64,000 bases of DNA, taken from the IMG/VR virus record IMGVR_UViG_2675903278_000002, one strand, 5' to 3'. The DNA is from a virus. Taxonomy: Duplodnaviria > Heunggongvirae > Uroviricota > Caudoviricetes. Every line of letters begins with the position of its first letter. Position 1 is the first letter of the stretch. The notes beneath the pieces are model-generated. The model saw only the letters and a list, made by a program, of their open reading frames with translations. It had not been told where the DNA came from and searched no databases. Made by a program: the position numbers and the translations under genes. This document shows positions 151 through 22,984 of this stretch, one piece after another.

Positions 151-582
151 GTGAACACTGATATTTTTTCTAAAATCATGGCCGATCTGGAGTTCGACCG
201 CGACAACCTTGAGGAAGTATGGCGTAAACAGCCACGGCTTTTAATGGAGTATGGGTCAAAACTAGCGCAGGCAGATCGAGATGTCGCAGAGGCAAAACTT
301 AACCTTGAAGCTGTTGAAGCAAAGCTATACGACACAGAGCGTAAGAACTTGAGTATGAACGGCATTAAGTTTAACGAGTCTGTACTGGACGCTAAGGTTA
401 AAACAAACCCACAGTATCTGTCTAAACGGCAGAAGTTGGATGAAGCACGGCACATCGCAGACATATACAAACATGCTGTCGCCGCCTTTTCGCATCGCCG
501 AGACATGATCGTTCAGGCGTCAAAGATGGCCATCGTTGAATTAGAGCGATTAGGCTCTGAACGCTTTATTACTCCCCGTTGA
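151..582 (+). CDS. hypothetical protein (small helical protein directly upstream of the SSB gene; possible recombination mediator by size and position only)
   Basis: 143-aa ORF, no diagnostic motif recognised; antisense ORF 129..506 judged spurious. Confidence 0.35.
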   Translation: MNTDIFSKIMADLEFDRDNLEEVWRKQPRLLMEYGSKLAQADRDVAEAKLNLEAVEAKLYDTERKNLSMNGIKFNESVLDAKVKTNPQYLSKRQKLDEARHIADIYKHAVAAFSHRRDMIVQASKMAIVELERLGSERFITPR

Positions 583-699
583 TTTTTGATAGATAATAAG
601 TAAGTACTGATCTATCATCTAACAGCTCGAAAGAGCCACGAATGAACGAAAGCCCAACGCGCATAGCGCCATCGGCCAAATCACAACAAGGAGAAACAC

Positions 700-1728
700 A
701 TGTCTAAGACATTACTTGATTTGCTTAACAAAACTCGTGAAGACATTGCCGCCAAACGTGGCAACAACGTTGATCTGACTCGCTTAAAAGACGGCGTCAA
801 CTATATCCGCATCTTCCCGAATAAAGACGACCCAAACGGTAAGTTCTTCCAGACTTTCGGTATGCACTACGTTAAGTATCAGAACGAGGAAGGTAAAGAA
901 GCAACCAACGCTTATATTTGTGAGCAACATACTCACGGTCGCGCTTGTCAGCTATGCGAAATGGTTATGGAAGGTCGCGCTCGTCACAAGGGTAACAAAG
1001 CAATGGAAGAACGCATCGGTCAAATGCGTGCCACTCCTCGCTACCTGGTCAACGGCATTCTTTCTGCTCGTGAGGATTTCGCAGATGCTGAGAAATGCCA
1101 GTTAATCGAGCTGCCGTCTACTGTATTCGATGATATCTGCAAAGCAATCACCGAAGACATCGCTGATGATATCGGCAATCCACTGAGCAAAGAGGAAGGC
1201 TACGCATTCCTGATTAAACGTACTGGCTCTGGTCGCGATACCAAATATGACGTCTCGCCTAAGCGTAAAGTCTACAAAGGCGATATCGAAGATAAATTCT
1301 GGAACACCCAGCATGATCTGATCGCATACGCAAATCAGGCTGATGAAACTCGTCTTCTGTCGACAGTTCGCACTATGGGTCGTCTGATTGGCATCGCTGC
1401 ACCAACTGCCGCAGCATCTGCACCAGCAATTTCCTCAACCGCGAAAACATCGGCTGCGGCACTACCTGGATTTGGCTCTGTCACTGGTCATACGGAGGGT
1501 GCGACTGCTGTAGCAACCGCTCACACCCCAGCTTCTGAACCAACCAGTCTGGTTGATGAAGAAATCCTCCGTGCCGTTGAAACTGAATTTAAACCAGAAG
1601 CAAGTTCCGCTGCCGTTGCCGTATCAGTCAAAGAGTCTGAAGCAGTCGCAGCGACATCTGTAGCAGCCGCATCTGCGACGGAAGACGAAGGTCTGGATGA
1701 CCTACTGAGAGAGCTGGACTCTCTGTAA
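700..1728 (+). CDS. single-stranded DNA-binding protein, T4 gp32-like
   Basis: gp32-like N-terminal core (IRIFPNKDD, Cys/His cluster CEQHTHGRACQLC), Ala/Ser-rich linker, acidic C-terminal tail DDLLRELDSL; start preceded by AAGGAGAAACACATG. Confidence 0.8.
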   Translation: MSKTLLDLLNKTREDIAAKRGNNVDLTRLKDGVNYIRIFPNKDDPNGKFFQTFGMHYVKYQNEEGKEATNAYICEQHTHGRACQLCEMVMEGRARHKGNKAMEERIGQMRATPRYLVNGILSAREDFADAEKCQLIELPSTVFDDICKAITEDIADDIGNPLSKEEGYAFLIKRTGSGRDTKYDVSPKRKVYKGDIEDKFWNTQHDLIAYANQADETRLLSTVRTMGRLIGIAAPTAAASAPAISSTAKTSAAALPGFGSVTGHTEGATAVATAHTPASEPTSLVDEEILRAVETEFKPEASSAAVAVSVKESEAVAATSVAAASATEDEGLDDLLRELDSL

Positions 1729-1744
1729 TCCCATTACGTGACCA

Positions 1745-1775
1745 GTAAGGCGTCTACGGACGCCTTACTTTTTGG
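1745..1775 (+). terminator. Rho-independent terminator after SSB gene
   Basis: perfect 10-bp stem GTAAGGCGTC/GACGCCTTAC, 4-nt loop, followed by TTTTT. Confidence 0.7.
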
Positions 1776-1788
1776 AAGGAATGTACCG

Positions 1789-20819: not shown

Positions 20820-21292
20820 AGATGATCGCTGCTGTTGGCCGTAACTATGAGATCGGCATAGCGAATGAACTCCCCTGGCGTTGTTCTACCGATCTGAAGC
20901 TATTTAAGAGACTCACCAAAAACGCCACTGTCGTTATGGGGCGTAAAACGATGGAAAGTCTCAAACGCCCTCTTCCAGAGCGTCATAACCTCGTTTTGAC
21001 GCGCTCTCATGGCTTTGTACCAAATGGATTCTACCCTGCTGGTGTGGATGATGTGTTGCGATTACCAGAGCCTGTGTGGGTGATTGGCGGGGAACAAATT
21101 TACTCGCTATTCATGCCGCATGTTGAAGAGATTTGGCTCTCCCACATCGGCGTTGATGTGCCAAACGCCGATGCATTCTTCCCGGCAAGCATGATGCGTA
21201 ATTTAGGCTTTGTGCCTGTTGAAACAGCTTATACCCAACGAGCCAGCGAGGAAGAGCCTGGCTTTTCGCAGATCGTATACAGAAGGTCGTAA
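20816..21292 (+). CDS. dihydrofolate reductase
   Basis: 158 aa; DHFR motifs (MIAAVGRNYEIG, LPW, VVMGRKT, VIGG). Confidence 0.85.
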   Translation: MKMIAAVGRNYEIGIANELPWRCSTDLKLFKRLTKNATVVMGRKTMESLKRPLPERHNLVLTRSHGFVPNGFYPAGVDDVLRLPEPVWVIGGEQIYSLFMPHVEEIWLSHIGVDVPNADAFFPASMMRNLGFVPVETAYTQRASEEEPGFSQIVYRRS

Positions 21293-21936
21293 TGGATTAC
21301 CGGATTGGGATCACTGGTGCTCAGGGCAGTGGGAAAACAACCCTGGCTAAATATATCGACAAACATTACGGAATCCCTTACGTGGATGCTGGTGTCGGAA
21401 GTTTGATGAGCCGCCTCGGTGTTCGAGTAGGTGATTCTATGCCTCTATATGAGCGGCTTCAGATTCAAATGGAAATAGCAAAGCATATAGAGCTACTTAC
21501 GCGTGGTGTTGAAGGCTTTGTTATCGATCGCACACCTGCTGATGTTATGGCCTACACGTTGGATTTGGTCGGCCATACAAATGAAGATCGGTGTATTGAG
21601 TTAGCCCTCGATATCGAAAAGTTTTGCCACAAAACTGCTATTTCAAACTTTAACGCCATTGCTGGCTTACGCCCGGGAGTCGCTCTCTCAGAGCGAGATT
21701 ACTTGCGATCACAACGAGCATCATTAGACCGTCTGTATGTCGCTCGTATTGATGCGTTGATGTGCGGGGAACTGACAAAAATTCACCTGCATCCGCAAAG
21801 GGGAGATCTGCAAACCTTCGTCGTTTCCAACCGATATCGCACGGTTGAAGCAAGAGCCAGATCAGTGATGAGAATGCTAGATAACGCTGTAGAAAAGATA
21901 GAAAACCGGTTCTGTGGCCGAGTGACCGTTCATTAG
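21292..21936 (+). CDS. P-loop nucleotide/nucleoside kinase (putative dNMP kinase-like)
   Basis: N-terminal P-loop GITGAQGSGKTT. Confidence 0.5.
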   Translation: MDYRIGITGAQGSGKTTLAKYIDKHYGIPYVDAGVGSLMSRLGVRVGDSMPLYERLQIQMEIAKHIELLTRGVEGFVIDRTPADVMAYTLDLVGHTNEDRCIELALDIEKFCHKTAISNFNAIAGLRPGVALSERDYLRSQRASLDRLYVARIDALMCGELTKIHLHPQRGDLQTFVVSNRYRTVEARARSVMRMLDNAVEKIENRFCGRVTVH

Positions 21937-21997
21937 AAATTGTTCGCCTCTTCGACATTGCGACAATAAAACTCTCAAAATGGGTTAAGGATAAAAA

Positions 21998-22417
21998 ATG
22001 TTTAGTGAAATGTTGCTTGAAGATGAACTGGATCGGAAAACAACAGAGGCTTTGATTCGTGTAGCGGACGAACATTCCCGGTCGCTTATGAGCGATCGAG
22101 AGGCTCGTCTGGCTATTCGTGCCATATTCGAAACTGCGCAGGGGCTTGTTGGTACACAAGTGGGTGAAGCCATTAACATCGCCATGTCTCAGTTCAGTGA
22201 AGGCAGTAAAAAGCCTCTGTTTCCTATGCATTTGATGCTGGCTGGTGGCTCGGTGCTTTATATCTCTGTTTGTCTGGATAGCAACCAAATCAATATTCTC
22301 AACACTGTGTCAGGTAAGTGGAAAGATCCGATTGTCTGTGAAACCAGTGAAGAAACTTTGAAAAAAGCGGCTCAATTTGTACGTAGCGCACTACTTAAGG
22401 GCGCTAAGAAGTTGTAA
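21998..22417 (+). CDS. hypothetical protein
   Basis: 139-aa ORF. Confidence 0.45.
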   Translation: MFSEMLLEDELDRKTTEALIRVADEHSRSLMSDREARLAIRAIFETAQGLVGTQVGEAINIAMSQFSEGSKKPLFPMHLMLAGGSVLYISVCLDSNQINILNTVSGKWKDPIVCETSEETLKKAAQFVRSALLKGAKKL

Positions 22418-22426
22418 GGAGTTCTG

Positions 22427-22984
22427 ATGACAACGATTGTTGCAGGCATCGATATCGAGTCTACGGGACTGGATTTCCTTGCTGGTCATAAAATTATTGA
22501 AATCGCAATTACCCGCTATGAACTGGAGACACAGAGACATATTGATAGTCTGGAGATGCGTTTTAACCCTCGCAGAAACATAGATCCGAAAGCTCAAGCC
22601 GTTCATGGCATTTCATTGGAACAGCTCGCAGCTGAACCTTTGTTGTCAAATCATGCCAGCGAAATTGGCGCTTATATGGGGGCATGTAGTGTGTGGGTTG
22701 CTCATAACGGCGAAGCATTTGATATACCATTTATTCGACACGAGTTTTCAGGGTATGGAGTAAGACTGCCAGAAGTTCCTGTTATAGATACTATGTTATC
22801 GGGATTGTGGGCCACAGAAGACGGTAAACGTCCCCGCCTTGAAGAGTTGGCCTTCTCTCTTGGCTTTATATACGATCATGCCAAAGCACATAGTGCCTTA
22901 TATGACACAAACTTAATGATGCAATGCTTCTTTAAGGCACGTAATAAGTACGGATTTTTTAAATTACCCTCTGAAATTGTGTAA
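22427..22984 (+). CDS. DEDDh 3'-5' exonuclease (DnaQ/epsilon-like)
   Basis: Exo I IDIESTG, Exo II HNGEAFDIPF, Exo III HSALYD. Confidence 0.75.
   Translation: MTTIVAGIDIESTGLDFLAGHKIIEIAITRYELETQRHIDSLEMRFNPRRNIDPKAQAVHGISLEQLAAEPLLSNHASEIGAYMGACSVWVAHNGEAFDIPFIRHEFSGYGVRLPEVPVIDTMLSGLWATEDGKRPRLEELAFSLGFIYDHAKAHSALYDTNLMMQCFFKARNKYGFFKLPSEIV

Follow-up and report, generated by a model that had tools for sequence, protein, structure and literature searches.

SSU5-like elements form the largest supergroup of phage-plasmids in enterobacteria (Pfeifer et al. 2021, PMC7969092). One of them, Escherichia phage Cyrano (OV696614.1), is plasmid pLF82 of the Crohn's-associated, adherent-invasive Escherichia coli (AIEC) strain LF82, where it is kept at 5.5 plasmid copies per cell; ciprofloxacin led to 39-fold more encapsidated Cyrano genomes, and the virions seen were those of a siphovirus and had the expected size (PMC9928086). 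Other SSU5-like elements are packaged after treatment with mitomycin C, as reported in the literature. Here we analyzed a stretch of 64,000 nucleotides from the IMG/VR virus record IMGVR_UViG_2675903278_000002, referred to as the window, with emphasis on a block of recombination, replication, and nucleotide synthesis genes at positions 151-22984. The window very probably represents about 60% of an SSU5/pHCM2-type phage-plasmid of Escherichia, that is, a temperate siphovirus of about 107-112 kb which would be maintained as a low-copy plasmid and replicate in two regimes. The element class is already described and a near-identical, fully annotated genome is published.

Relatives and conservation of the element

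Positions 1-23000 of the window were compared with known genomes by megablast. Cyrano matched with 98.9% identity at 100% query coverage, and Salmonella phage SSU5 with 77.8% identity over 94% of the query, both being colinear with the window gene by gene. A search of a plasmid collection with the same query returned 808 records, 115 of which span at least 80% of it. The best plasmid matches were 99.7% identical; they originate from E. coli and E. albertii, are 107-112 kb in size, typed IncFIB (PLSDB), and non-mobilizable. The full window aligned to Cyrano 52063-108379 followed by Cyrano 1-9726 and therefore corresponds to about 60% of a circular element of about 108 kb, the portion outside the window being Cyrano 9727-52062. 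Identity to Cyrano and the E. coli plasmids (e.g., NZ_CP104844.1) ranged from 98% to 99.7% with the same gene order across the whole window; three accessory stretches, at about 32.8-35.5 kb, 39.7-40.7 kb, and 47.8-49.1 kb, differ from Cyrano.

Plasmid replication and partition functions, the latter including ParB-N proteins (51022-52388), share one molecule with siphovirus structural genes. Positions 54276-64000 correspond to the terminase, portal, capsid, and neck genes of Cyrano; terminase, portal, and capsid genes are intact and match Cyrano 1-9726 with 99.4% identity. The terminase (55041-56297) is of the T4-like/Terminase_6 type. Extrachromosomal maintenance and virion production have been demonstrated for relatives; for the element studied here, circular maintenance and infectious virions are predicted.

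Compared with SSU5, all open reading frames (ORFs) of the 151-22984 block have kept their full length without disruption. Their products share 81-96% amino acid identity with the SSU5 counterparts; synonymous divergence (dS) is saturated, and the ratio of nonsynonymous to synonymous substitution rates (dN/dS) is 0.02-0.08. The genes are therefore maintained by selection. Many of them carry a label in the Cyrano record already, namely UvsY, the gp32-like single-stranded DNA binding protein (SSB), RecA, RepA, SbcCD, RuvC, NrdAB, the MazG-like protein, dihydrofolate reductase (DHFR), the epsilon-like exonuclease, RNase H, and the UvsW helicase.

Location of the replisome genes

An initial annotation, made from the nucleotide sequence alone, had described this gene set together with a plasmid replicon, reported that DNA polymerase, primase, and replicative helicase are missing from the 64 kb, and presumed these enzymes to lie outside the window. 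Searches with Pfam, PHROGs, and NCBIfam recovered the listed genes at or near the positions first assigned to them. Among the remaining sizeable ORFs of the 64 kb, Pfam detected no polymerase catalytic subunit, no primase, and no DnaB-type helicase, and a tblastn search of the window with the DnaE, DnaB-like helicase, primase, and ligase of relatives gave nothing better than E = 0.48. The possibility of a hidden polymerase, primase, or replicative helicase inside the window was ruled out by these scans. The reported absence holds for these enzymes; what had been overlooked is a homologue of the Pol III theta subunit and P1 Hot at 34826-35077.

The missing genes are found directly upstream in near-identical elements, and their location had been guessed correctly. 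In NZ_CP104844.1, which is 99.7% identical, position 1 of the window corresponds to record position 48240; dnaE (42921-46439) ends 1.8 kb upstream, and genes for a DnaB-like helicase, a Toprim/DnaG-like primase, and an ATP-dependent ligase are located at 24.8-30.1 kb, i.e., 18-22 kb upstream of the window. Pfam analysis of this region identified DnaE with PHP, pol3_alpha, finger, and HHH domains, as well as DnaB_C, Toprim/DnaG_N, and ATP ligase domains. The replisome genes of Cyrano and SSU5 are arranged in the same order, and these upstream genes of the relatives lie on the same strand as the recombination and deoxynucleoside triphosphate (dNTP) genes of the window. Full-genome annotation revealing a defective element devoid of lytic replication genes had been named as the finding that would refute dual replication modes; the near-identical complete elements carry these genes. 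In NZ_CP104844.1, the ligase and glutaredoxin genes are separated by an inserted ISEcp1-blaCTX-M unit, which lies within the region of the replication genes; in a numbering with dnaE at 20922-24440, the unit spans 9041-11432.

The dnaE segment occurs in 842 plasmid records as compared to 808 for the block in the window. The DnaE of relatives is full length, and roughly the same distance separates it from the enzymes of Thermus, Mycobacterium, and E. coli; it is therefore not a recent copy of a host gene. Its C-terminal part of about 170 residues (approximately 1000-1172) has no Pfam match; in E. coli alpha, an OB fold and the tau-binding domain are found at this place. Coupling of the phage-plasmid DnaE to the host clamp loader may thus differ from that in E. 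coli. Neither a clamp nor a clamp loader is annotated. A QAELM sequence at residue 970 of a relative's DnaE, just behind the HhH domain, is a candidate internal clamp-binding motif, for which the evidence is weak. Because no clamp gene is annotated and DnaE contains this candidate motif, we infer that the phage replisome probably uses the beta clamp and clamp loader of the host.

Expression in the lysogen points to two replication regimes

The initial annotation had suggested dual replication modes, with RepA acting in lysogeny. Published normalized read counts of the LF82 lysogen agree with this suggestion. Expressed Cyrano genes include those for RepA (133), the repressor (96), ParA (50), and the integrase (50), while most Cyrano genes remain below 20, which is background; with a background of about 10, repA is expressed about 13-fold above it (PMC9928086, S1 Table). 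The replisome genes are at background level (DnaE 10, helicase 21, primase 11, ligase 6), and the same holds for the recombination genes (UvsY 11, gp32 9, flap endonuclease (FEN) 7, RecA 10, SbcD 7, SbcC 12, RuvC 9) and the dNTP genes (NrdA 8, NrdB 13, ThyA 11) (PMC9928086, S1 Table). Since repA is switched on while replisome, recombination, and dNTP genes are at background in the lysogen, and since Cyrano is SOS-inducible and makes virions, the reading that RepA replicates the plasmid state and the phage genes act in lytic growth is supported.

Several points weigh against this reading. The expression data were obtained with Cyrano, which is an element other than the present one, from a stationary-phase culture in LB medium, and in the literature searched we came across no study that addressed lytic replication of an SSU5-like element by experiment. 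The location of dnaE, helicase, and primase genes is deduced from elements which are at least 99% identical; the absence of clamp and clamp loader is based on annotation together with Pfam scans that covered part of the element. Furthermore, two gene assignments described below are weak, namely those of the UvsW-like helicase (49398-50957) and of the kinase-like protein (21292-21936). A 2026 preprint on heteroresistance was discarded as relevant literature; it deals with a different phage-plasmid family under CopA/RepA control.

A switch from RepA-driven to phage-driven replication would have some practical relevance for copy number and for the dosage of cargo genes during induction, because the element class is common in Enterobacteriaceae and includes carriers of resistance genes. 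The block is common to more than 800 plasmid records, and pHCM2 of S. Typhi and pMT1 of Y. pestis belong to the element class.

The plasmid replicon

The gene repA (7303-8358, minus strand) encodes a theta-replication initiator of the Rep3 family with WH1-WH2 architecture (Pfam Rep3_N, E = 1.3e-10; Rep3_C, E = 1.3e-4, both above curated cut-offs); a comparison with solved Rep structures yielded no relative at E ≤ 1. The window contains 23 copies of the iteron motif AYAGYGGWT as compared to 3.45 expected matches, and 20 of the 23 are clustered within 6869-8901. These Rep3 domains and clustered motifs bear out the theta-type RepA/iteron replicon proposed initially.

Downstream of repA, an incA-like array of about 10-12 iterons in both orientations extends over 6818-7300, defined by repeat families and by AYAGYGGWT matches at 6869-7299; the same array is present in SSU5. 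Upstream of repA, two origin modules were identified. Module 1 (8396-8641) comprises six iterons with 21-bp phasing (8396-8525), GATC/GGGTCT repeats (8548-8625), and a perfect DnaA box (8633-8641). Module 2 (8797-9014) comprises iterons with 21-bp phasing (8797-8906), six GATC sites in 58 bp (8943-9000), and a DnaA-like box (9006-9014); nowhere else in the 64 kb are GATC sites clustered as densely. The modules are arranged in tandem about 380 bp apart and separated by an AT-rich, poorly conserved spacer. Both are conserved within a 744-bp region upstream of repA that is 90% identical to SSU5 as compared to about 78% in the flanking genes. The architecture is that of a P1/RepFIB-like iteron replicon, with iteron binding and origin function being predicted. 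A Dam-type N6-adenine methyltransferase encoded at 24136-24729 (plus strand; PF05869, E = 2.5e-38) is a candidate partner of the GATC clusters in the origin.

Recombination genes

The first gene of the block (151-582, plus strand) encodes a protein of 143 residues which matched PHROG_231 ("UvsY-like") with E = 1.9e-4 over nearly its full length. Sequence searches against the PDB, using phmmer and hmmsearch with a family profile, gave no match, and a Pfam match was likewise not obtained. An alignment of 18 homologues was built and the structure was modeled with AF2 (pLDDT 91.4). In a Foldseek comparison of the model with the PDB, the top 19 matches were all T4 UvsY (4zwq/r/s/t) with TM scores of 0.72-0.93. 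According to this model the protein is a UvsY-fold recombination mediator, an identification settled only by the fold comparison. Its dN/dS relative to SSU5 is 0.04.

The next gene (700-1728, plus strand) codes for a gp32-family SSB (PF08804, E = 1.7e-66 with full profile coverage; PHROG_1192, E = 7e-116). It is followed by a gene for a FEN-type 5'-3' exonuclease/flap endonuclease (1738-2733, plus strand; Pfam 5_3_exonuc_N and 5_3_exonuc), which probably starts at 1789 as in SSU5 and whose nearest solved structure is the T5 D15 exonuclease (1exn, E = 4e-15). A small conserved ORF (2727-2999, plus strand) lies between FEN and recombinase genes; it belongs to PHROG_2207, a family of unknown function (E = 5e-54), and has the SSU5 counterpart SSU5_059.

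The recombinase gene (3002-4075, plus strand) encodes 357 residues of a RecA-family protein (Pfam RecA PF00154, E = 2e-42; PHROG_97 "UvsX-like recombinase", E = 1e-91). Among PDB entries, bacterial RecA matched with E = 1e-34, other phage UvsX entries with about 1e-9, and T4 UvsX (3io5) with 1e-5. The allele is free of inteins. In contrast, Cyrano and many plasmids contain an insertion of about 1.26 kb at window position ~3193, which results in a RecA of 779 residues; the inserted sequence is annotated as LAGLIDADG homing endonuclease or Hint domain (intein), and the insertion point is located near codon 64, close to the P-loop.

Downstream of the replicon, an SbcD/Mre11-type nuclease, gp47-like (10001-11086, plus strand; Pfam Metallophos; PHROG_100 SbcD-like, E = 3e-93), and a gp46-like SbcC/Rad50-type ATPase of 638 residues with a short coiled coil (11316-13232, plus strand; Pfam AAA_23, SMC_N, and SbcC_Walker_B; PHROG_77, E = 7e-164) are encoded. 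Judged by their domains, the two proteins form a predicted nuclease of the Rad50/Mre11 class, assignable to a class comprising gp46/47 and SbcCD and to neither of these specifically. The first 11 nt of the next ORF (13222-13965, plus strand; 247 residues) are shared with the end of sbcC. Pfam, PHROGs, and NCBIfam gave no match for this ORF, and a structure model of moderate quality had no meaningful fold match. Its position is kept across the family; it evolves fast, with 48% amino acid identity to SSU5 as compared to 81-96% for its neighbors and a dN/dS of 0.19. A RuvC-like Holliday junction resolvase follows (13975-14544, plus strand; PHROG_159, E = 3e-57; weak NCBIfam RuvC match, no Pfam match).

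Far from this cluster, an ORF at 49398-50957 (minus strand) encodes a superfamily 2 (SF2) DNA helicase that is distantly related to UvsW and XPB (Pfam ResIII, DEAD, and Helicase_C). PDB searches matched XPB with E = 2.5e-12 and T4 UvsW (2oca) with E = 2e-8, covering the motor core only; tblastn against T4-like uvsW genes gave 22-25% identity over about 75% of the length. An ORF for 92 residues downstream of the helicase gene (49117-49395, minus strand) was considered as UvsW.1-like partner and dropped, as it has no Pfam match.

Nucleotide supply and replication accessory genes

NrdA (14618-16933, plus strand; Pfam E = 3e-131) is the alpha subunit of a class Ia ribonucleotide reductase with an ATP cone and NrdB (17040-18182, plus strand; Pfam E = 4.5e-46) the beta subunit. 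A MazG-like nucleoside triphosphate pyrophosphohydrolase is encoded at 18260-19129 (plus strand; Pfam PRA-PH, E = 1.3e-8; PHROG_671, E = 1e-47). The thymidylate synthase gene (19274-20404, plus strand), which probably starts at 19301, encodes a protein of the ThyA type (PF00303, E = 2.3e-79) with an insertion that divides the Pfam match into two stretches. The orthologue is labeled ThyX in the Cyrano record; this label is wrong, as the protein matches the ThyA family PF00303. A protein resembling HAD phosphatases and the PNKP phosphatase domain (20358-20819, plus strand; Pfam HAD_PNKP, E = 1.1e-4, below cut-off; PHROG_415, E = 8e-9) probably starts at 20406. It is followed by DHFR (20816-21292, plus strand; Pfam DHFR_1, E = 1.6e-34).

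The ORF at 21292-21936 (plus strand) had been called dNMP-kinase-like. It encodes a P-loop NTPase resembling nucleotide kinases, which matched Pfam AAA_28 (E = 1.4e-9), PHROG thymidylate kinase/clamp loader families (E ~ 1e-10), and NCBIfam (d)CMP kinase (E = 5e-6). The P-loop NTPase assignment is retained; all matches are below curated cut-offs, which leaves the kinase call weak. A conserved protein of 139 residues (21998-22417, plus strand) belongs to PHROG_5373, a family of unknown function, and gave no Pfam or NCBIfam match. The block ends with a DnaQ/epsilon-like 3'-5' exonuclease of 185 residues consisting of the catalytic domain only (22427-22984, plus strand; Pfam RNase_T, E = 6e-22; PHROG_192 "DNA polymerase exonuclease subunit", E = 4e-51).

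Beyond the block, RNase HI is encoded at 25676-26323 (plus strand; Pfam RNase_H, E = 1.7e-44). The Pol III theta homologue (34826-35077, plus strand) is a P1 Hot-like protein of 83 residues (PF06440, E = 4.5e-34; P1 Hot, PDB 1se7, E = 1.3e-46 over the full length). Its gene lies in a variable accessory stretch; it is not found at that place in Cyrano and is present in many plasmids. With epsilon-like and theta proteins in the window and alpha (DnaE) known from near-identical relatives only, the element would have genes for all three subunits of a Pol III core.

Proposed replication cycle and the start of lytic replication

From the gene content the following cycle can be proposed. In the plasmid state, RepA would bind the 21-bp-phased iterons of the P1/RepFIB-like origin, with its module present twice upstream of repA and the incA-like array downstream, and would recruit the host replisome for theta replication; the surrounding long plus-strand operons would be repressed. 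Upon SOS induction or infection, these operons would be expressed. Lytic growth would then employ a phage-encoded replisome of the bacterial type consisting of DnaB-like helicase, DnaG-like primase, DnaE, and DnaQ-like proofreader, plus Hot/theta in the present element. FEN, RNase HI, and ATP ligase would serve in the maturation of Okazaki fragments, and NrdAB, ThyA, DHFR, the kinase-like protein, and the MazG-like hydrolase would form the supply line for dNTPs. Gp32-like SSB, UvsY-fold mediator, RecA-family recombinase, SbcCD, SF2 branch helicase, and RuvC-like resolvase would constitute a presynaptic and end-processing set, which most likely restarts or primes forks, builds concatemers for packaging by the terminase, and trims branches before packaging.

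How the lytic regime would begin can be explained in different ways. Recombination may start lytic replication as in T4: ends processed by SbcCD would be used by recombinase loaded with the help of UvsY and gp32, the resulting D-loops would be taken over by DnaB, DnaG, and DnaE, and RepA and oriR would have no part in lytic growth. We consider this possible, short of probable. The genes form a complete set with the same orientation as the replisome genes; they are under strong purifying selection and, like the replisome genes, silent in the lysogen; furthermore, a second initiator or origin was not recognized in the window. However, a circular plasmid offers no ends after induction unless it is cut first, and in many temperate phages replication does not depend on the recombination genes that they carry. 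In addition, ORFs without Pfam match next to the DnaB-like helicase gene of relatives could encode an initiator or loader; in NZ_CP104844.1, two such ORFs are located at 2020-2760 and 5483-6259 in the numbering with dnaE at 20922-24440. Lytic replication might instead be driven from an origin, either RepA/oriR or an unrecognized one, and change from theta to rolling-circle mode in the manner of lambda or P1; the recombination genes would then serve circularization of terminally redundant virion DNA, repair, module exchange, and multimer resolution. This explanation, which we regard as possible and slightly less likely than the first, is consistent with the T4-like/Terminase_6 terminase, which is compatible with headful packaging; genomes packaged in this way are permuted and redundant and depend on recombination for circularization. 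Cyclization of P1 relies on recombination. It is also consistent with oriR being the best conserved non-coding stretch and with repA expression, which is constitutive across the conditions examined (PMC9928086, S1 Table). Size and cost of the module, however, exceed what circularization needs, since host RecA could do it.

That the element is a defective, plasmid-only relic in which replication, recombination, and dNTP genes decay as cargo is very improbable. One SSU5-like element of E. coli indeed gave no packaged reads after mitomycin C, but the ORFs are intact and full-length as compared to SSU5 with dN/dS of 0.02-0.08, the 99%-identical Cyrano makes virions and is induced 39-fold, and the window itself holds intact terminase, portal, and capsid genes with 99.4% identity to Cyrano 1-9726. 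Within the two-regime reading, the lytic system could be a hybrid that has never been characterized: a T4-style presynaptic machine would make D-loop origins for a DnaB/DnaG/DnaE-DnaQ(-Hot) replisome working with the host beta clamp, and the RepA origin would serve the plasmid state only. We put this forward tentatively, as a doubtful proposal.

Other genes in the window

The ORF at 48097-48699 (minus strand) codes for a homologue of the phase-1 flagellin repressor FljA (PF03614, E = 2.5e-84) and may be a lysogenic-conversion gene acting on flagellin expression of the host. The window furthermore encodes a full-length methionyl-tRNA synthetase (37109-39271, plus strand; PF09334, E = 5e-166) and a P-loop ATPase of the Mrp/NUBPL type (35980-37080, minus strand; PF10609, E = 2e-102). 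The latter is named MinD in the Cyrano record, and the Cyrano gene is among those expressed in the lysogen (PMC9928086). A protein of 129 residues with an S24 peptidase domain, LexA/UmuD-like and with no recognized DNA-binding domain, is encoded at 35553-35942 (plus strand) adjoining a variable region; it may be part of an SOS-responsive switch.

Comparison with known systems

In SSU5 and plasmid pHCM2, genes for DnaB-like helicase, primase, ligase, DnaE, UvsY-like protein, SSB, FEN, and recombinase are followed by RepA with iterons, SbcDC, resolvase, NrdAB, ThyA, DHFR, and DnaQ-like exonuclease, which is the module order of the present element; iteron motif and duplicated origin layout of SSU5 are also the same. 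SSU5 and pHCM2 differ by their Salmonella host, by a nucleotide identity of about 78%, and by other accessory genes.

The replicon resembles those of P1 (oriR-repA-incA) and RepFIB in having iterons on either side of the initiator gene and a DnaA box with a GATC cluster in the origin; duplication of the origin module distinguishes it from both. An element-encoded Dam methylase and a Hot/theta homologue are shared with P1. However, P1 has an additional small replicon for lytic growth (repL) and encodes no polymerase, in contrast to the SSU5-type family with its full DnaE-type replisome.

The initial annotation had regarded the gene set as a mirror of T4 replication and nucleotide supply, which is correct in part. 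With T4 the element shares gp32-family SSB, UvsY-fold mediator, a recombinase of the RecA/UvsX superfamily, a Mre11/Rad50-type nuclease (gp46/47 class), an SF2 branch helicase, FEN, NrdAB, ThyA (td), and DHFR (frd). Unlike T4, it is temperate and carries a plasmid replicon. The polymerase of its relatives belongs to family C (DnaE with a DnaQ-like proofreader) in contrast to the family B enzyme gp43, and counterparts of the gp45 clamp and gp44/62 loader are not annotated in them. The recombinase resembles bacterial RecA far more than UvsX, the T5 enzyme is the nearest match of the FEN, and a RuvC-like resolvase is found in place of endonuclease VII. The toolkit is a mosaic and not a copy of that of T4, with gp32 and UvsY as its genuine T4-type features.

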